Shown piece by piece: positions 2 to 9,338 of a DNA stretch of 40,069 nt (positions are counted from its first letter, which is position 1; every line of letters starts with the position of its first letter). The position numbers and the translations under genes are program-made. The DNA comes from Candidatus Limnocylindria bacterium (lineage in GTDB: Bacteria > Chloroflexota > Limnocylindria > QHBO01). Below the pieces are notes generated by a model, which had not been told where the DNA came from, did not search any database, and saw only the letters and a program-made list of their open reading frames with translations. Location: positions 1-40,069 of the forward strand of contig JBGQCU010000003.1 of the NCBI GenBank assembly GCA_041495495.1. The letters are read 5' to 3'.

Positions 2-1723
2 GATCCCACGCTGATCAGCAATGCCGAGATGGCGCGCGTCTTCAACGAGATCGCCGACATGCTGGAGATCTCCGGCGAGCTGGTCTACAAGGCGGTCGCC
101 TACCGTCGGGTGGCGGATGCGGTTGAGCGCTGGCCGGATGACGTCGCCCACCTGATCGTGGCCGGCGAGGCGCCCAAGATCCCGGGAGCCGGTCCGGCGT
201 TGAGCACCAAGCTGGCCGAGCTCGCCAGCACCGGACAGCTGGGCTACTACGACCGGATGCGCGCCCAGGTGCCGGCGGGGCTGCTCGAGATCCTGAAGAT
301 CCCCGGGGTTGGGCCGCGGACCGTCAAGCAGCTGCACGACGAGCTCGGCATCGAGTCGGTCGATGCACTCCGCGCGGCCGCCGAGGCCGGCACGCTGCGC
401 GGCGTGAAAGGCCTCTCGGCCCGGACCGAGGAGAACATCCTGGCCGCCATGGCGCGACAGGCAGCGCGCGGCACGCGCCTGCTGCTCCACGACGCCGACG
501 CCCTGATGGCCGGCCTCGTCGATCGGTTGCGCGAGGTGCCCGGTGTGCGCGCCATCGAGCCGGCCGGATCGCTCCGACGCCGCAAGGCGACCATCGGCGA
601 CCTGGACCTGTTGGCGGCGACCGATGACCCCGCCCGCCTGATCGCCGCGCTCGACGGCCTGCCCGGAGTCGAGGCGGTCCTCAGCGCGGGGAACGACAAG
701 TCGAGCATCGTGCTGGTCGACGGGCCCCAGGTCGACCTGATGGTCTGCCCGCCGGCCGCCTGGGGCAGCCACCTGGTCCACTTCACCGGCAGCAAGGAGC
801 ACAACGTCGCGCTGCGCGGGATGGCCCTGGAGCGTGGCCTCTCCCTGTCAGAGAAGGGCTTCAAGGTGGTCGACAGCGGCGCGCTGCAGCCGGTGGCGAC
901 CGAGGACGAGGTCTATGCGCGGCTCGGCCTGCCGTGGATCCCGCCCGAGCTGCGCGAGGACAGCGGCGAGATCCAGGCTGCGCTCGCAGGTCGCCTGCCG
1001 ACCCTCGTCAGCCTCACCGATCTGCGCGGCGACACGCACGTGCACTCGGACTGGACCGATGGGGTCGACTCGATCGAGGCGATGGCGCGCGCCGCCCGCG
1101 GGCTCGGCCACGAGTGGATCGTGCTGACCGACCACTCCCCGTCGCTGGGCATCACGCGTGGCCTGTCGGCCGAGCGGGTGGCCGAGCAGCGCGCGGAGAT
1201 CGACCGCCTCAACGTCGAGCTGGCTCCATTCCGCATCCTGCATGGCACGGAGATGGAGATCCGGGCTGACGCCACCCTCGACTATCCCGATGCGCTGCTC
1301 GCCGCTTTCGACCTGGTGGTGGCCAGCGTGCATACCGCCCGCGGGCAGTCGACCGAGCAGCTGACGCGCCGCACCCTGGCGGCGATCGACAACCCGCACG
1401 TTGACGTCATCGCGCACCCCACCGGCCGGATCGTCAACCGCCGCGACCCCATCGCCCTTGACTGGCCGCGCGTCTTCGAGGCCGCCGCCCGGACCGGCAC
1501 CGCGCTCGAGCTGAACGGCAGCCCGCGGCTTGACCTCGATGACGCGCTGGCGAGGGCCGCCGGACAGGCCGGCGCGCGCCTGACGCTGGCCAGCGACGCG
1601 CATCGGACCGAGGAGCTCGACCAGCTGCGCTACGCCGTCGCGATGGCGCGTCGCGCCTGGCTCAGCGCATCCCAGGTGATCGGCACGCGCAGCGCCGCCG
1701 AGCTGCTGGAGCTGGTGCGATGA
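2..1723 (+). CDS. polX: DNA polymerase X / PHP 3'-5' exonuclease (PolX); true start probably upstream of the window
   Basis: Frame is open from base 2 (DPTLISNAEMARVFNEIADMLE). Shows HhH IPGVGPRT, GSLRR..GDLD palm motif with VDL third Asp, HFTGSKEHN, and PHP motifs HVHSDWTDG, TDHS, AHPTGR and SDAH. Confidence 0.95.
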   Translation, partial: DPTLISNAEMARVFNEIADMLEISGELVYKAVAYRRVADAVERWPDDVAHLIVAGEAPKIPGAGPALSTKLAELASTGQLGYYDRMRAQVPAGLLEILKIPGVGPRTVKQLHDELGIESVDALRAAAEAGTLRGVKGLSARTEENILAAMARQAARGTRLLLHDADALMAGLVDRLREVPGVRAIEPAGSLRRRKATIGDLDLLAATDDPARLIAALDGLPGVEAVLSAGNDKSSIVLVDGPQVDLMVCPPAAWGSHLVHFTGSKEHNVALRGMALERGLSLSEKGFKVVDSGALQPVATEDEVYARLGLPWIPPELREDSGEIQAALAGRLPTLVSLTDLRGDTHVHSDWTDGVDSIEAMARAARGLGHEWIVLTDHSPSLGITRGLSAERVAEQRAEIDRLNVELAPFRILHGTEMEIRADATLDYPDALLAAFDLVVASVHTARGQSTEQLTRRTLAAIDNPHVDVIAHPTGRIVNRRDPIALDWPRVFEAAARTGTALELNGSPRLDLDDALARAAGQAGARLTLASDAHRTEELDQLRYAVAMARRAWLSASQVIGTRSAAELLELVR

Positions 1724-2519: not shown

Positions 2520-3575
2520 TCACCGGCTCGAAGGCTTGGCGGATGGTGAGCTCCTTGGCTCAGGAGTTGGCTCAGGGCAGGACTGCCGCTCGGGTTCGAC
2601 AAGCCGGAATCGCAGCGTGAGGTGGACGGTCCGCGGCCAGCCGAGGACGCTGACCCGAACATCGAGGCTGTCGATCCCCTGGAAGCCCAACACCGGGGCG
2701 GGGTTCGACGGGTCGAAAGCGCTGCCGAGAGCGCAGGCGCCGGCACGCCCGACGAGCCAGATCGACTGGCCGCTGCGGGGCATGTCGAAGGGCGTAAATG
2801 GGCGGATCGGTCCGCTCATCCCACCGTTCGGCTCGCGGTCGATCCAAAGGGCCGTCGGCATCATTTCGGGGAGGAACGAGCGGGGATCCCGACCGAACAA
2901 GGGCGACACGATCCCCTCGATCCGGATGGGGAGCAGCCCGTCCGCCAAGAGGTAGAGCCCGACGCTGAAGCGGCCGTTCGCCGGGGCCAGCTCGTACAGC
3001 AGCTCCTCCCCCGAGCCGGGGACCTGCGGCGCCCTGACCGTGTTGAGGCCCAACCCGTAGCCGGAATCGAGAACCGTGACGGGAATGAGGGCTGCCACGA
3101 CAGCCCAGCCTGCGAGCACCACGGCGACTATGGCTGGGAAAAAACGCCGCCGCCCGCGGACGGTCATCGCCAGGATCCCCAGTGCGGCGCAGGCGAGCAC
3201 GACGGGGATGGCCGGTGATAGGTCATCGGTCCCGCTGACGCCGGGGCCCTGGAGCGTCGGATCGAAGGCCCCGACCGGAGACTCGACGGCGGATGCACTG
3301 GCGACCGTCCCGACGGGCGATGATGCGCCGGGACCGGTAGCTGGTCCGAGGTGGCGGGGCGCCGTGAGGCCGATGACGGCCACGAGAATGACCGCCGCGA
3401 GCCCGACCACGGCTGCGAACGGACGTCTCAGTTGTGACGGCTTGGTCGACTCGGCTTCTTCCGGGACGTCCTGCACCCATGATCGAAGCACGTCTGTGGC
3501 AGCGCCGGGATCGCGCCGGCGCAGCACCGTGCGCAGCTCGTCCTCGAGACGCGGATCGCCTGGCTGCCCGGTCAT
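2520..3575 (-). CDS. Putative membrane-anchored anti-sigma factor / sensor
   Basis: ATGA overlap with the ECF sigma stop. Short helical N-terminus (LEDELRTVLRRRDP), about 3 hydrophobic segments, and a C-terminal domain with two Cys and a Pro/Ser-rich tail. Anti-sigma role inferred from position. Confidence 0.65.
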   Translation of the reverse strand: MTGQPGDPRLEDELRTVLRRRDPGAATDVLRSWVQDVPEEAESTKPSQLRRPFAAVVGLAAVILVAVIGLTAPRHLGPATGPGASSPVGTVASASAVESPVGAFDPTLQGPGVSGTDDLSPAIPVVLACAALGILAMTVRGRRRFFPAIVAVVLAGWAVVAALIPVTVLDSGYGLGLNTVRAPQVPGSGEELLYELAPANGRFSVGLYLLADGLLPIRIEGIVSPLFGRDPRSFLPEMMPTALWIDREPNGGMSGPIRPFTPFDMPRSGQSIWLVGRAGACALGSAFDPSNPAPVLGFQGIDSLDVRVSVLGWPRTVHLTLRFRLVEPERQSCPEPTPEPRSSPSAKPSSR

Positions 3576-4141
3576 CGCTCTGCCACCTCGAGGGCGGTCC
3601 GCAGGCGCCCCATCGCGTGGTGCAACCGCGATTTCACCGTGCCCTCGGGGATCCTGAGCACCTCCGCGATGCCCGGGACGGTCAGGTCCGAGTAGAAGCG
3701 CAGCGTGACCACGACCTGTTCGTCGAGCGTCAGGCCGACGACCGCGCGGTCAAGCGCGTCACGCGCCGCTGTCGCCTCGGAGGCGTCTGCGATTCGCGGG
3801 TGCTCCGCCTCGATGAGCTTGCGACTGACGCCATCCCGGGCGCGCCTCGCGCGGTCCCGCAGCCGGTCCCGGCACTCGTTCACGAGGATCCGGCGGAACC
3901 ACGCGTCGAAGCGGGTCGGGTCGCGGAGGCCCGCGAAGCCACGCCAGGCGGCGACCGCCGCCTCATGGACCGCATCCTCGGCCTCAATGCGATCGTTGAG
4001 GATCACCCCGGCCAGTCGATAGGCTCCATCGAGCTGCCGGTCCACGAGTCCACGGAATGTGTCAGCCCGCAGGTCGGTGACCCGCAGCGCCTCGAGCCGC
4101 TTCTCGTCGCCAATCGGTTTCGCCACCAAGCTCCCCAGCAT
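3572..4141 (-). CDS. ECF RNA polymerase sigma-70 factor (189 aa; real gene is the 3' part of the 653-aa ORF)
   Basis: Region 2 (AYRLAGVIL..AEDAVHEA..FDAWFRRILVNEC) and region 4 (LRFYSDLT..IAEVLRIPEGTVKSRLHHA). ATG at 4141 has GGAGG about 9 nt upstream. Confidence 0.92.
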   Translation of the reverse strand: MLGSLVAKPIGDEKRLEALRVTDLRADTFRGLVDRQLDGAYRLAGVILNDRIEAEDAVHEAAVAAWRGFAGLRDPTRFDAWFRRILVNECRDRLRDRARRARDGVSRKLIEAEHPRIADASEATAARDALDRAVVGLTLDEQVVVTLRFYSDLTVPGIAEVLRIPEGTVKSRLHHAMGRLRTALEVAER

Positions 4142-4167
4142 CCGCTGTCGCCTCCGTTCATCCGATC

Positions 4168-4195
4168 TGACGAACCGGCATGGCGAATCGTTCGC
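4168..4195 (-). promoter_or_regulatory. Candidate ECF-type autoregulatory promoter GAAC-N17-CGTC
   Basis: Minus strand reads GCGAAC gattcgccatgccggtt CGTCA about 27 nt upstream of the sigma ATG; fits the generic ECF AAC/CGT consensus. Confidence 0.55.
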
Positions 4196-4289
4196 GAGGA
4201 TAGACGCTGGGGCACCTGACTCATAGAGCCGGACGTGTCCGGGTTCGCGGTCGTCTCTGTGGGGGCTCTCGTCCTTTCTCCGGTGCGCG

Positions 4290-4318
4290 TTGACACCCCT
4301 GTCGGGCTCTGCTACAAG
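4290..4318 (+). promoter_or_regulatory. Sigma-A-type promoter for the TPR / MTase-like operon
   Basis: Perfect TTGACA (4290-4295), 17-nt spacer, TGc-TACAAG extended -10 (4313-4318). Confidence 0.6.
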
Positions 4319-4399
4319 TAGGCGCCCTTCGGCCGGGTGACCGGATTCGGACGGGCATTTCGTGCATCTGGACCGCCTCACGGAGAGCCTGGGGAGACG

Positions 4400-5227
4400 A
4401 TGACGCTCGGAGAGACGGAGCCCACCAACCGGCAGCGTCGCCACCTTACCGAGGTCGCGATCGGGCAGGCCACGCGCGGCGAATGGGAGGCGGCAGTCGC
4501 CAGCAACCGCGAGATCCTGGAGCTGGGCGGCGACACCGATGCCTACAACCGGCTGGGCAAGGCGCTGGCAGAGCTGGGCCGCCACGCCGAGGCGCTGGAG
4601 GCGTACCAGGCCGCTCTGGCACGCGATGCCACCAATCGGATCGCGGAGCGCAACGTCGGGCGGCTGCGGGTCATCGCCGGCGGCGACGGAGCGGCGGTTG
4701 GCGACGGCAAGCCCGAGAAGGCATCCGCTGCGCATTTCATCGAGGAGATGGGCAAGACCGGCCACGCCCGCCTGATCAACTTGCTGCCGGCCAAGCAGCT
4801 CGCCCCGCTCTCCGCCGGCGATACCGTGGAGCTGGTCCTGGACGCCGGTCAACTGCTGGCCAGGGTGGGGGAGGTCGAGATCGGGCAGGTCGAGCCGCGC
4901 ATCGGCTCGCGGCTGGCCAAGCTCATGAAGGGCGGCAACCGCTACGAGGCGGCGATCACCACGGTCGACGGCCACGAGGTGCGGGTCATCATCCACGAGG
5001 CCTTCGCCAGCCCGTCCAATTTCGGCAAGGTCAGCTTCCCGGCAAGCGCCACGGGCCGGGCGAGTGACGTCAGGCCGTACATCAAGGGCACCCCGCTCCG
5101 CTACGATGACGAGGAGGAATCCGAGGAGTACGAGGAGGAGTCCGAGGAGGTCGAGGAGCTCGACACCACCCTTCCGGAGTTCTCCGCCGAACCCGACCTC
5201 GAGGAAGAGCTGCTCGAAGAACCGTAG
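4400..5227 (+). CDS. TPR protein with HIRAN-like beta-barrel domain and highly acidic C-terminal tail
   Basis: ATG 4400 after GGGGAG. About 2 TPRs (AYNRLGKALAELGRHAEALEAYQAAL), then FIEEMGKT, then LSAGDTVEL..IGQVEPRIGSRLAKLMKGGNRYEAAI (HIRAN-like by eye). 23 of the last 40 residues are D/E. Confidence 0.85.
   Translation: MTLGETEPTNRQRRHLTEVAIGQATRGEWEAAVASNREILELGGDTDAYNRLGKALAELGRHAEALEAYQAALARDATNRIAERNVGRLRVIAGGDGAAVGDGKPEKASAAHFIEEMGKTGHARLINLLPAKQLAPLSAGDTVELVLDAGQLLARVGEVEIGQVEPRIGSRLAKLMKGGNRYEAAITTVDGHEVRVIIHEAFASPSNFGKVSFPASATGRASDVRPYIKGTPLRYDDEEESEEYEEESEEVEELDTTLPEFSAEPDLEEELLEEP
5105..5224 (+). repeat. Low-complexity acidic tract (GAG-rich)
   Basis: DDEEESEEYEEESEEVEELD...LEEELLEEP; no K/R in the last 40 aa. 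Confidence 0.85.
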
Positions 5228-5235
5228 GAGCCCGA

Positions 5236-8088
5236 TTGAGCGAGGCCGAACGGAAGCGACTGGATCACGTCGTCCTTCCACGCCGCCTCCCCGGGCTCGC
5301 GCTGCTGGAGCGCTATTTCCCTTCGCCGGCCGATAACCAGCTCGACGCTGAGCTCTCCGCATTCGGCCGCCCCGGCGACACCGTCCTCGACCCATGGGCC
5401 GGCACCGGCTGGACCGCGCGCCGTGCGATCGCCCACGGCATGCGGGTGGTGGCCGCCGATCCGAGCCCCTTTGCGCAGCTCGCCGGACAGGCGTTCCTGC
5501 TCGCCCCGGAGCCCGCCGCGCTGGATGCGGCATTCGCCCAGCTCTCCGCCTCGCGGCGCGTCGACGTGCCGCTGCGCCAGCACCTCGAGGAGCTGTACGC
5601 CACCCGTTGCTCGACCTGCCGTCGCCCGGTCGTGGGCGATCAGTTCATCTGGCCGCGCGACGGCGACGCGCCGGGGCGGAAGGTGTACCACTGCCCCAAC
5701 TGCGACGTGTCGGTCGGCGGTCCGCAGGAACGGGTCGCGCCGATCGACGACGCTGATCTCGCCAAGCTTGGGATCGACCGTCCGGCCGATCCCGAGGCCA
5801 CCCTGCCGGTGGCGGACCCCGCGGCCGATGCCGAGGATGACCTGCCGCCGGCGCCGATCGGGCTGACCGCCATGCCGGATCCGGACGAGGACCCTGCTGC
5901 GCCGCATGAAGACCCCGCTGCGCCGATCGGCGAGGGGGGCGGTCCGCCCGCGCTGTCGCCGGCGCTGCCCGATCCGCCGACCGGGTCGTTGCGGTCCGGC
6001 CGCCCGCGCTTCGCCTCCACCGTCCATCCCGACCCGGCCCCCCAACCGCAGACCGATGTCCGCCAGAGCCTGCACTACCAGCAGCTGCGGGACCGGTTTC
6101 CGGTGCTTGACGGCCGAACTGAGCTGGTCGATGAGCTGCTCGACTTGTACACGCCGCGCAACCTGTACGCGCTGCAGACGATCGCCAACAAGATCGATGC
6201 CGAGTTCCGCGAGCCATCGCTGGCGGCCGTCTTCCGCGTGGCGCTGGCGGCCTGCCTGCTCCCCGGCAGCCGCCTGAACGGCTATCCCGGGCGGGTCGCC
6301 TCGCTGCGCATCAGCGGCGGGCACGTGCGCCAGCCGGCGTCGCGCCACCAGCGCGAGGTGAACGTCTGGCGCCTCTTCGAGTCGGCGGTCAGCGACGTCA
6401 GAACGGCGATCGTGGCGCTCGGCCGCGATCGCCGCCCCGCGCGCTTCGCGGCCGATCTGGACGAGCTGGGCGGCGTGGGGGCGGCCAACGTGCTCTGGAT
6501 CCGATGCCGTCCCGCGGTGGTCGGGCAGTATCTGCCGCCGGAGGGGGTCGACCTGGTGCTCGGCTCGCCCCCGCCCTCTGCGAGCGCCGACGAGATGAGC
6601 TTCGAATACCTCGCCACCGCCTGGCTGATGGGACGCGAGGCCGCAGAGACGCTGCGCCTCGAGCCGCTCTTCAGTGCGACCCAGAGCCGCGGCGAGCCCG
6701 CCGAGGGGACCGCCATGCGGCACGCCATGACGTCCGCAGCCGGAGCGCTGAAGCCGGGCGGCTGGTGCAACATCCTGATCGAGGGCGGTGACCTGGATCG
6801 GATGCTGGCGGTCGCCGTGGCCGCCGCCGCCGCGGATCTCGAGCTGGTGGACGTCATCCACCGCGAATCGGTCCGCTCGGGAGAGGGGATTGCGCTGCAC
6901 TTCCACAAGCCGTCGGCCGAGGATCGGCTGCGAACCGCCATCTCGTCCAACCCGCTCCAGCTCGGTGCCGAGGACGGGCATCTCACCTACCCGGACCTTG
7001 CCACGGCGATCGATCGGGCGGCGACGGCGCTCCTGAAGCGCCGCGGCGAGCCGGTCGGGCTGGTGCGCATCGGTGCCGCCGTGCTGGTGGAGCTGCAGCG
7101 CGCCGGCCTCCTGTCGCGCGTCTCCGCAGCCCGCGGCGCGGCACCTGGGCCGGAGGGATCCGAATCGGCTCCGGCGGAGGCCACCGACGCCGCGGAGCGG
7201 CCCGAGCGCGGCCCGAACATGCTGGCGACCCTCCTGCGCGAGGAGCTGGCGCGCGACGACCATCCGTCGCTGGTCCGTATCGGCGACGCGGATCGGCCCC
7301 TGTGGTGGCTGCGCCAGCCCGAGCTGAGCGAGACGCCGCTGGCAGATCGTGTCGAGTGGGCCACCTTCTCCGTCCTGACCACCGCCGGCCGGCTGGATGA
7401 GGCCGGCTTCCTGGAGCGGATCTACGCGCTCTTTCCGGGGCTGGAGGCTCCGGACGAGGAGCTGGTGCGGGCCTGCCTGGCGGCCTACGCCTTCGTCGGC
7501 GAGAAGGGGCTGCTGCGCACCGAGGAGGAGCTGGCGGGGCGCCAGGAGGACCACGCCCGGATCATCGGCACGCTGGTCGACTACGGGCACCGCCTGGGAC
7601 TGCGCGCCTGGGTCGGTCGCCACGAGCACGAGCGGCCGTATGCGGGGGCCAGCCTGCTCGAGCGGCTGCGCGACGATGAGCGCCGGGCCTACCTGCCGCT
7701 GATCGTGCGCGCCCCGGCCGCGTCCCTGGCGGCGATCGATGCGATCTGGTATGTGCGCGGCCGGATGGCCTTCATGTTCGACGTCGAATGGACCGCCATG
7801 CTCGGCGAGCCGATCCTGCGGCGCGGCCTGCAGATCGAGCCGACCGATCAACAGGCACGCTTCTGCGTCTTCCCGGCCGAGCGTACCGAGCTGCTCCGCC
7901 TGAAGCTGGACCGATCGCCGTGGCTGCGTGCCGAGGTCGCCCGCCAGAACTGGCACTTCCTGAAGTGGCAGCACCTGGAAGGGCTGGCGGCGCGCGATGG
8001 CGCCAGCCTGGACTGGCTGGAGCCGGTGCTGGGGCTCGATCCGCTGATCGAGCGCGGAGGCGAGCAGCTCACCATGTTCGGGGAGTAG
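5236..8088 (+). CDS. Large DNA amino-methyltransferase-fold protein with Zn ribbon and C-terminal PD-(D/E)xK-like domain; catalytic motif IV degenerate
   Basis: TTG start after AGGAG overlapping the upstream stop. Motifs: VLDPWAGTG (motif I), CSTC/CPNC, LYTPRNLYAL, VDLVLGSPPP (in place of DPPY), LKPGG, H..I..L..YG..LG...W, IDAIW..FDVEWT. C-terminus EQLTMFGE. Confidence 0.8.
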   Translation: MSEAERKRLDHVVLPRRLPGLALLERYFPSPADNQLDAELSAFGRPGDTVLDPWAGTGWTARRAIAHGMRVVAADPSPFAQLAGQAFLLAPEPAALDAAFAQLSASRRVDVPLRQHLEELYATRCSTCRRPVVGDQFIWPRDGDAPGRKVYHCPNCDVSVGGPQERVAPIDDADLAKLGIDRPADPEATLPVADPAADAEDDLPPAPIGLTAMPDPDEDPAAPHEDPAAPIGEGGGPPALSPALPDPPTGSLRSGRPRFASTVHPDPAPQPQTDVRQSLHYQQLRDRFPVLDGRTELVDELLDLYTPRNLYALQTIANKIDAEFREPSLAAVFRVALAACLLPGSRLNGYPGRVASLRISGGHVRQPASRHQREVNVWRLFESAVSDVRTAIVALGRDRRPARFAADLDELGGVGAANVLWIRCRPAVVGQYLPPEGVDLVLGSPPPSASADEMSFEYLATAWLMGREAAETLRLEPLFSATQSRGEPAEGTAMRHAMTSAAGALKPGGWCNILIEGGDLDRMLAVAVAAAAADLELVDVIHRESVRSGEGIALHFHKPSAEDRLRTAISSNPLQLGAEDGHLTYPDLATAIDRAATALLKRRGEPVGLVRIGAAVLVELQRAGLLSRVSAARGAAPGPEGSESAPAEATDAAERPERGPNMLATLLREELARDDHPSLVRIGDADRPLWWLRQPELSETPLADRVEWATFSVLTTAGRLDEAGFLERIYALFPGLEAPDEELVRACLAAYAFVGEKGLLRTEEELAGRQEDHARIIGTLVDYGHRLGLRAWVGRHEHERPYAGASLLERLRDDERRAYLPLIVRAPAASLAAIDAIWYVRGRMAFMFDVEWTAMLGEPILRRGLQIEPTDQQARFCVFPAERTELLRLKLDRSPWLRAEVARQNWHFLKWQHLEGLAARDGASLDWLEPVLGLDPLIERGGEQLTMFGE
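5779..6054 (+). repeat. Pro/Asp/Ala-rich low-complexity linker inside the MTase-like protein
   Basis: RPADPEATLPVADPAADAEDDLPPAP...EDPAAPHEDPAAP...; EDPAAP occurs twice in tandem. Confidence 0.7.
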
Positions 8089-8181: not shown

Positions 8182-8520
8182 CTAGGCGCGCGGCCCCTTC
8201 GGACGGGCCGCTCGCCTCCCCAGCGCACGTCGCACCACGGTCATCACCTCGTCGACGTAGGGCTGCCCCTGGCCGACCTCGATGGCGTGCGCCAGGCATC
8301 CGTCGATGTGGTCCTCGAGCAGCAGCAGGGCGACGCTGTCGGCGGCGGCCGTCATCGCCTCGACCTGCTGCAGGACGTCCAGGCAATAGGCCTCGTCCTC
8401 GACCAGGCGCTCGATACCGCGCACCTGGCCCTCGATCCGGCGCAGCCGGTTCAGCAGCTCTCCCCGATCCTTGCTGTAGGAGTGGCGGAAGTGATCGGCC
8501 GTGTGCATGTTGCTGGTCAT
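8182..8520 (-). CDS. csoR: CsoR/RcnR-family metal-sensing repressor (C-H-C fingerprint, likely Cu(I))
   Basis: RLRRIEGQVRGI, YCLDVLQQ and EDHIDGC motifs. Start ATG 8520 (alternative 8508). Confidence 0.9.
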   Translation of the reverse strand: MTSNMHTADHFRHSYSKDRGELLNRLRRIEGQVRGIERLVEDEAYCLDVLQQVEAMTAAADSVALLLLEDHIDGCLAHAIEVGQGQPYVDEVMTVVRRALGRRAARPKGPRA

Positions 8521-8560
8521 ACTCGGGGGTAGTATGTGGAGGCGGACCGCCATCGGTCAA
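8518..8560 (-). promoter_or_regulatory. csoR promoter (TTGACC-18-CATACT) with overlapping CsoR/RcnR-type operator CATACT-CGGGGGT-AGTATG
   Basis: 6-bp inverted repeat flanking a G-tract (8518-8536) matches the established TACT-G-tract-AGTA architecture of RcnR/CsoR operators. Confidence 0.75.
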
Positions 8561-8609: not shown

Positions 8610-9338
8610 ATGCCCGACCTTGAACGCCACGAGCTGATCCAGCCTCTCGAACGAGCCCTGGTCATCTTCAGTCATCCGGATGACGCCGAGTTCGGTGCGG
8701 CGGCGACCATCGCCCACCTGACCGCCGCCGGCGCCCGGGTCGACTACGTGGTGACGACCGATGGCGGCAAGGGGACCGAGGACCCCGCGGTCACCTCGGC
8801 GCAGCTGACGTCCCTGCGCGAGGCCGAGCAGCGCGCCGCGGCTGACGTGCTGGGCGTCACCGAGATCGTGCACCTCGGCTACCCCGATGGCTACCTCGAG
8901 CCGACCCTCGCCCTGCGGCGCGACATCGTGCGCCAGGTCCGTCGCTTCCGGCCCGACCTGGTGATCGCCCAGAACCCGCTGCGCCGCCAGGACGGCAACC
9001 CGTTCATCGGCCACCCCGATCACCTGGCCACCGGGGAGGCGACCCTGGCCGCGGTGTATCCCGCTGCGCGCGACCGGCTCAACTTCCCGCAGCTGCTGTC
9101 CGAGGGGCTCGAGCCGTGGAAGGTGCGCCAGATCCTCGTCAGTGGGGTGGAGCGGCCGAACCTGTTCATCGACGTCTCGAGCACGTTTGAGATCGGGCTG
9201 CAGGCCCTCTTCTGCCATGCCAGCCAGATCTCGGACCCGGCCGCCGTCGAGGAGCGGGTGCGACAGCGTGCGGTGGAGCTGGGCGAGCCGGTCGGCCTCG
9301 AGCTGGCCAACGCCTTCCTGTCGATCCTGATCGGCTGA
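8610..9338 (+). CDS. PIG-L / LmbE / MshB-family N-deacetylase
   Basis: HPDDAE, TDGGKG, REAEQ and HPDH motifs intact; ATG 8610 lies 10 nt after TACGAT. Confidence 0.9.
   Translation: MPDLERHELIQPLERALVIFSHPDDAEFGAAATIAHLTAAGARVDYVVTTDGGKGTEDPAVTSAQLTSLREAEQRAAADVLGVTEIVHLGYPDGYLEPTLALRRDIVRQVRRFRPDLVIAQNPLRRQDGNPFIGHPDHLATGEATLAAVYPAARDRLNFPQLLSEGLEPWKVRQILVSGVERPNLFIDVSSTFEIGLQALFCHASQISDPAAVEERVRQRAVELGEPVGLELANAFLSILIG

Follow-up and report, generated by a model that had tools for sequence, protein, structure and literature searches.

A likely domesticated methylase–nuclease fusion of Chloroflexota with a strongly conserved sliding-clamp-type tail

The known clients of the bacterial sliding clamp DnaN, among them Pol IV, PolC, DnaE, MutL and Hda, carry short peptides of the type QL[S/D]LF. 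Escherichia coli DnaE uses QADMF, with methionine at position 4. The available part of one preprint gives the clamp-binding consensus as Q-phi-x-LF, with a hexapeptide form Q-phi-x-LxL, and an alanine scan in which positions 1, 4 and 5 matter most, position 2 less and position 3 not at all (bioRxiv 10.64898/2026.05.27.728225). Two further systems provide a comparison, as far as the accessible portion of a review of clamp partners describes them (PMC9690074). EndoMS is a clamp-activated mismatch nuclease, and EndoMS/NucS combines a restriction-enzyme-like nuclease domain with a clamp motif in a lineage that lacks MutS and MutL. In DNMT1–PCNA a short motif holds a DNA methylase fold to the sliding clamp, and this is the only pair for which that portion names a methyltransferase. 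Among bacterial methylases the closest architectures are PglXI of BREX type 3, the HmaB/DUF1156-like enzymes and the fusions of N6_N4_Mtase with NmeDI_C, which follow the order motif I, zinc-ribbon insert, motif IV. Here we describe a gene encoding 950 residues in a stretch of 40,069 nucleotides (the window) from a Candidatus Limnocylindria bacterium (contig JBGQCU010000003.1 of assembly GCA_041495495.1). The family to which its product belongs is likely an undescribed domesticated restriction–modification (R-M) fusion that carries a strongly conserved clamp-type motif and serves as a replication or repair factor.

The gene and the elements of its product lie in the window as follows.
5236-8088, plus strand: the 950-residue gene, a degenerate zinc-ribbon N6/N4 methyltransferase followed by two helical domains, an NmeDI_C-like nuclease domain and a clamp-type tail
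5389-5409, plus strand: methylase motif I, DPWAGTG, residues 52-58, intact here
5608-5703, plus strand: zinc ribbon C125/C128/C153/C156, each cysteine kept in 147-148 of 150 representatives
5800-6048, plus strand: proline/acidic insert, residues ~189-271, of low model confidence and lacking in distant homologs
6565-6576, plus strand: decayed catalytic motif IV, SPPP, residues 444-447, aligned to DPPY/DPPF of intact relatives
6988-7530, plus strand: two helical domains in the predicted secondary structure, residues ~585-765, with RGEP and LxDRVE signatures
7552-7935, plus strand: NmeDI_C-like nuclease domain, assigned by homology, with acidic D835, D849 and E851
8065-8079, plus strand: clamp-type pentapeptide QLTMF, residues 944-948, codons CAG CTC ACC ATG TTC

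An earlier note, made from the letters of the window, had placed QLTMF at the extreme C-terminus after ERGGE. It stands exactly there, followed by GGG GAG TAG, that is glycine, glutamate and the stop codon (8086-8088). The reading frame is a real gene: out of 7996 candidates scored, 1686 proteins match at E <= 0.001. The best 120 homologs are 69–93% identical, and their named sources are nearly all Chloroflexota or Limnocylindria. A match was found in 39 of the 41 genomes searched, a tally that takes in our own genome and one unpublished genome (G017), and in all 21 of those that are near complete. No noteworthy promoter or terminator was found on the strand of the gene.

How well is the tail conserved? 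The best 120 close homologs all end in QL[TS][MIF]FGE; since the whole tail is conserved among them, it is the distant relatives that provide the real test of the motif. A profile built from 45 family members matched 1127 proteins at E <= 1e-30 among representatives at 50% identity, and the best 150 were used; the profile contained the tail, of which the five residues contribute a small share to scores above 550 bits. In these 150 proteins, less than 50% identical to each other, the column of Q944 is glutamine in 146. Position 2 is L, M or I in 141 (63, 51 and 27), position 3 varies freely (P in 36, R in 34, S in 16, A in 16 and Q in 11), position 4 is L, M, F or I in 148 (101, 28, 11 and 8), and position 5 is F in 85, L in 48, W in 6 and I in 6. 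Residues 938-943, just ahead of the motif, are not conserved. A strict pattern falls within the last 15 residues of 93 representatives, compared with 1.7 in shuffled tails, and 69 of these matches end at the very last residue; its internal rate is 13 in 114185 positions. A broader form, Q-phi-x-phi-F/L, is found in the same 15 residues of 132 representatives, compared with 2.7 after shuffling. Within our own genome the strict pattern Q[LM][SDTAPG][LMF]F occurs in the last 15 residues of two of 1511 open reading frames (ORFs), a crudely filtered set in which 0.15 would be expected, and these are the 950-residue protein and a hydrolase fragment. A chance match is ruled out by the counts in our own genome, in the 150 representatives and in the shuffled tails. 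A further set holds 68 orthologs taken from genomes, one per genome and excluding our own, four loci at contig ends, one fragment, duplicates and two non-orthologs; here 56 carry the pentapeptide, eight, from families f2 and f5, carry a hexapeptide tail of the type QLxFxW, and four carry neither. The terminal QLxxF that the earlier note had singled out is therefore conserved very strongly and throughout the phylum.

The pattern of conservation fits that of a clamp-binding peptide. The column profile of the family repeats the order seen in the alanine scan, so far as the preprint's available text reports it, being strongest at positions 1, 4 and 5 and free at position 3, and the QLxFxW tail of f2 and f5 resembles the hexapeptide form of that consensus. 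In the AlphaFold2 model of the protein (mean predicted local distance difference test score (pLDDT) 83.5, predicted template modelling score 0.82) the tail is predicted to be disordered and free, with pLDDT < 50 for residues 943-946 and 948-950. The DinB/Pol IV encoded in our own genome (L147:418-1776, plus strand) carries QLTLF just behind its IMS_C domain, one residue different from QLTMF. The other ORFs of that genome with the strict motif encode an ABC-2 membrane protein, the hydrolase fragment and a product without a Pfam match; the first two are probably chance occurrences and the third, by its sequence, reads like a shadow frame. DnaN was found in all 30 carriers tested, that of our own genome being encoded at L087:1307-2428 (minus strand), and in the 29 that were aligned R152, P153, L155, D173, R176, F244, P245, M368 and P369 are invariant; we take these residues to line the peptide cleft. 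On this evidence QLTMF is likely a functional β-clamp-binding motif, and the peptide would very probably sit in the DnaN cleft. The protein shares with the known clients the shape of the motif, its position-wise conservation and its disordered C-terminal placement, though position 4 is methionine where most relatives have leucine. Unlike them it is a pseudo-methylase of R-M origin, and our literature searches gave no client of that kind. Of the earlier note's DnaN-binding reading, the conservation and the clamp-like profile are borne out; its implied comparison with an ordinary R-M enzyme needs correction, for reasons that lie in the body of the protein and in its relatives.

The body has the fold of a methyltransferase, as the earlier note had supposed, and it is degenerate. 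Pfam gives N6_N4_Mtase (PF01555) only below threshold (score 14.4, cut-off 26.7) and NCBIfam gives no match. Weak matches to methyltransferases came from PADLOC, from PDB sequences and from Foldseek, those of PADLOC being to its type II methyltransferase and PglXI models and those of Foldseek exclusively to methyltransferase folds (best E 7e-4). Residues ~25-543 align to PglXI-like methylases with an hhalign probability of 99.7 over 395 columns, and to DUF1156/HmaB-like methylases with a probability of 98.8 over 397 columns, and this part runs from motif I through the four-cysteine zinc ribbon to motif IV. The fold is thus correctly assigned; catalytic motif IV has decayed, however. Its consensus in the family is LPRP, and [DNS]PP[YF] occurs anywhere in the protein in none of the 120 close homologs and in four of the 150 distant members, compared with 119 of 120 in each intact group sampled. 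Motif I, (F/W)xGxG, is intact in 118 of the 120 close homologs, while FxGxG is found in only two of the 150 distant ones, most having decayed to DPFGxSP. The acidic residue that follows motif I, D75, is intact in the 950-residue protein. Judged by these motifs the protein is likely a methylation-dead N6/N4 methylase.

The two helical domains that follow may be winged helices, as the predicted secondary structure suggests. Both are also present in an intact methylase (L139:2962-5376, minus strand), where they are followed by QLRLL and then by a different C-terminal domain. The best-kept residues of the family, in the zinc ribbon and the helical domains, are E707, R308, N376, P739, Y751 and R883. 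The C-terminal domain of family members is labelled NmeDI_C (PF27126), after R.NmeDI, in the accessible part of its description a type II endonuclease (PMC2095814). It matches the stand-alone domain reciprocally (E 1.9e-5), and EVE-fused nuclease domains are also homologous. A catalytic role for D835, D849 and E851 is suggested by alignment, and the position of D849 is glutamate in most relatives. The acidic triad is kept as D..EVE in 15 of 15 members of family f3, as D..[ED]xE in 103 of the 120 close homologs and as D..[EQ]xE in eight of nine deep carriers. Orthologs in f4, with genomes of 1.1–1.2 Mb, are strongly diverged (L036:6103-8454, minus strand; L094:3-941, plus strand) and have QLDL inside a longer tail. 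This family is presumably the small-genome Limnocylindraceae of PMC13212565; the available part of that paper discusses loss of base-excision repair and does not name MutS.

The clamp motif itself, which the earlier note had called unexpected for an R-M enzyme, is carried by methylases that are intact. Fourteen weaker profile matches were fetched, and several methylases with intact motifs among them have a similar peptide near the C-terminus. One of these zinc-ribbon methylases is encoded immediately downstream of a HaeII-family endonuclease (Pfam E 3e-114).
L143:2921-5224, minus strand: intact zinc-ribbon methylase, ending QLPLL
L143:5127-6230, minus strand: HaeII-family endonuclease
Among the best 120 of its 1192 homologs (P0272-P0391; 58–100% identity, from several phyla) 119 have both DPPY/F and FxGxG. 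The broad motif is present in the last 40 residues of 98 and in the last 15 of 63, compared with 2.1 in shuffled tails, with LE and a charged tail behind it in many cases. The R-M context of the intact relatives comes from this one locus; Pfam searches of 18 neighbours of intact relatives gave a second methylase and a transposase, and otherwise nothing that clearly belongs to a system. The best 120 among 4807 PglXI-like proteins (P0392-P0511) all lack the motif in the last 40 residues, and in 49 of them QLxLF occupies a single internal column between two helical domains. By eye, and uncounted, several PglXI-like proteins have similar peptides at the N- or C-terminus. Also by eye, a methylase of ~520 residues with intact SPPY in family f3 carries an N-terminal QLxLxL in five of six loci (L089-L093; not L088). 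Fusions of a methyltransferase with NmeDI_C, of 820–910 residues and from other phyla, form clusters in the Atlas, one of which aligns with 786 residues of the model of a family member at a template modelling score of 0.77; these models point to an ancestral architecture. Intact full-length fusions of this kind were seen in the Atlas clusters only, and none was found in the 401 phylum genomes, plasmids or genome contigs searched. A distant relative, an archaeal plasmid methylase, lies directly before brxA (L151:3812-6223, plus strand), in line with a BREX-type ancestry.

From these motifs a clamp-type tag does not appear foreign to R-M methylases: both intact groups, the HaeII-associated and the PglXI-like, share Q-L-x-L-F/L motifs with the present family. 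Since intact methylases carry the same tail, the tag may predate domestication of the family. What sets the family apart is that the intact zinc-ribbon methylases keep DPPY/F and are patchily distributed, whereas its own motif IV is gone and its gene is part of the core, in a single copy. Full-length orthologs (E < 1e-160), counted one per genome, were found in 66 of 301 genomes of the phylum, 31 in our own class and 35 from a further seven families. In the 21 near-complete relatives the gene is single copy without exception, unlike patchy defence genes. The neighbours of the orthologs are housekeeping genes that vary by lineage. No recurring defence genes were found around them in 34 wide loci and the window, and in the same set no cognate BREX, DUF499 or type II R-M genes recur near the gene. 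The status of an ordinary R-M enzyme, which the earlier note had implied, therefore does not hold, since virtually no member of the family retains motif IV and the protein behaves as the product of a single-copy core gene.

The class in which the gene is so well kept has an unusual mismatch-repair background. MutS_I is found in none of 41 class genomes compared with 36 of 38 outside the class, and MutL in none of 41 compared with 15 of 17. NucS_C gives weak partial matches in 13 of the 41 (E <= 0.001), four of them over the cut-off and none extending over more than 66 of the profile's 124 positions, in a search that covered this C-terminal domain and not the N-terminal domain of NucS. PF01939 (NucS) has no match in our own genome or on the 950-residue protein. 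A MutS_V match in our own genome (L128:445-2898) lacks a MutS_I domain and looks like MutS2.

We favour the view that the protein is a domesticated, likely methylation-dead methylase–nuclease tethered to the clamp and likely engaged in post-replicative surveillance or repair of DNA rather than in phage defence, and we assign this a probability of about 0.55. The tail would dock the protein on the DnaN clamps that replication leaves behind on new DNA, and there the dead methylase body, together with the helical domains, would act as a reader of the daughter duplex. That the reader checks for a mismatched, damaged or half-modified base has, in our estimate, a little less than an even chance. The nuclease-like domain might nick at the sites so found in lineages that keep D..[ED]xE, our own included, a step that we regard as possible and somewhat doubtful. 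The tag probably goes back to an ancestral methylase that was active and would have used the clamp to modify daughter strands. Several observations weigh against this reading. Of the 301 genomes 235 have no full-length copy, and most sampled families of Chloroflexota lack the gene. The motif is missing from the last 15 residues of 18 of the 150 representatives and of four of the 68 genome-derived orthologs, and the genomes are related, so that all such counts are of non-independent events. Residue 174 of DnaN is asparagine in our own genome, where glycine is commoner. The triad is altered to Q or K in seven of eight members of f2 and f5 (the other was not matched) and could not be matched in any of nine from f11 and f35; it is thus not universal, and nicking cannot be the function of the whole family. 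Lastly, MutS is present in 21 of 21 carriers tested outside the class, so that the family is not simply a substitute for MutS.

What else could the protein be? It may have a real clamp tether and be a non-catalytic DNA-binding factor with no role in repair, whether it reads half-methylated DNA in the manner of SeqA, organizes the chromosome, acts in the cell cycle or partners an active methylase as a pseudo-enzyme. Such a factor would account for f11 and f35, which have lost both catalytic centres yet retain the gene and its tail, and for the location of the best-kept residues in the zinc ribbon and helical domains; the separate methylase of f3, with its intact SPPY, fits as well. However, the acidic triad is invariant in f3 and present in most of f1, a search of our own genome (83% complete) gave one match only and no active partner methylase, and no conserved neighbour was found outside the class. 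We consider this explanation, in each of its forms, unlikely without being far-fetched. It is improbable that the protein is instead an alternative mismatch-repair enzyme of a class without MutS and MutL, a clamp-activated nuclease like EndoMS/NucS. The absence of MutS_I and MutL and the weakness of the NucS_C matches are what such an enzyme would explain, and decay of the ortholog has gone furthest in f4, whose genomes are small. But seven families with both MutS and MutL have retained the protein just as well, f2 and f5 have neither and yet have an altered triad, the loss of MutS and MutL in the class may have been a single event, and the NucS search covered the C-terminal domain. Simple replacement of MutS/MutL is rejected, since carriers outside the class have both. 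With EndoMS/NucS the 950-residue protein shares a restriction-enzyme-like nuclease domain and a clamp-type motif in a lineage devoid of MutS and MutL; it differs further in its methylase body and in the loss of nuclease residues from some members of its family. This mismatch-nuclease alternative is nevertheless a specific form of the repair idea, and the favoured reading and its rivals partly overlap.

Two explanations remain. An active defence enzyme, like type IIG or BREX methylase–nucleases and with an unusual catalytic loop, would be in keeping with the intact motif I and D75, with the weak matches to the PADLOC models and with the intact full-length fusions of the Atlas. The aromatic residue of motif IV is missing in all close homologs, though, motif I is lost in 148 of the 150 distant ones, and the gene is single copy, class-wide and set among housekeeping neighbours, so that this is the explanation to which we attach next to no weight. 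The tail, for its part, might be kept for a reason other than DnaN, such as the pocket of another partner, a degradation tag or self-packing. Short hydrophobic C-terminal motifs do serve many partners, and the QLxLF of the PglXI-like relatives, lying within a conserved and probably folded stretch, could be structural. It is the clamp consensus, instead, that agrees with the invariant glutamine, the free position 3, the switching between pentapeptide and hexapeptide and the location of the motif at a disordered end, and a tail kept for one of those other reasons is very improbable.

If it is correct, the clamp-tethered surveillance reading would add a new type of client to the sliding clamp, one that began as a defence enzyme and became a core chromosome factor in several classes of Chloroflexota. 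It also suggests one way in which fidelity might be maintained in a high-GC class that has neither MutS/MutL nor a convincing NucS. With the tag also present on intact R-M methylases, the further question arises whether bacterial methylases use the clamp to protect new half-methylated DNA, in which case they would be a bacterial counterpart of DNMT1–PCNA. That analogy fits the intact relatives better than the 950-residue protein, which is likely non-catalytic, and DNMT1 is an unrelated C5 methylase that uses a PCNA-interacting-peptide box. A more sweeping proposal, which we put forward as speculative and think unlikely, is that a branch of R-M/BREX-type methylases rides the clamp to methylate daughter strands close behind the fork, and that one of them, a methylase–nuclease, was domesticated in Chloroflexota and became a reader-nuclease following the fork, so that a class without MutS/MutL or NucS would correct replication errors in a third way. 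No paper on the family or on clamp-binding bacterial DNA methylases was found in literature searches whose scope left out most subscription journals and supplementary tables. The original survey of clamp motifs, reportedly that of Dalrymple in 2001, might list such proteins.

The gene has a close upstream neighbour in the window.
4337-5227, plus strand: a gene for an acidic-tailed protein with TPR repeats and a middle domain that has no annotation, ending 8 nt before the start of the 950-residue gene
It is adjacent in 16 of 16 loci from other families of the class and in 18 of 20 loci of the genus, the other two being cut by contig ends, and in none of 18 outside the class. The TPR gene is widespread in Chloroflexota, many non-carriers included, and has no strong match in any of the 13 carriers of f11 and f35. 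As an obligate partner it is ruled out by the lack of adjacency outside the class and by this independent distribution. The two-gene unit is flanked, in an ordinary housekeeping context, by genes for a metal-sensitive repressor (8182-8553, minus strand), a PIG-L deacetylase (~8611-9338, plus strand) and an ECF sigma factor, whose domains are found in the last 160 residues of the frame at 3572-5533 (minus strand). A gene for a DNA polymerase X with a PHP domain (29-1723, plus strand) lies ~3.5 kb upstream, and one is also near the gene in six of seven f3 loci.

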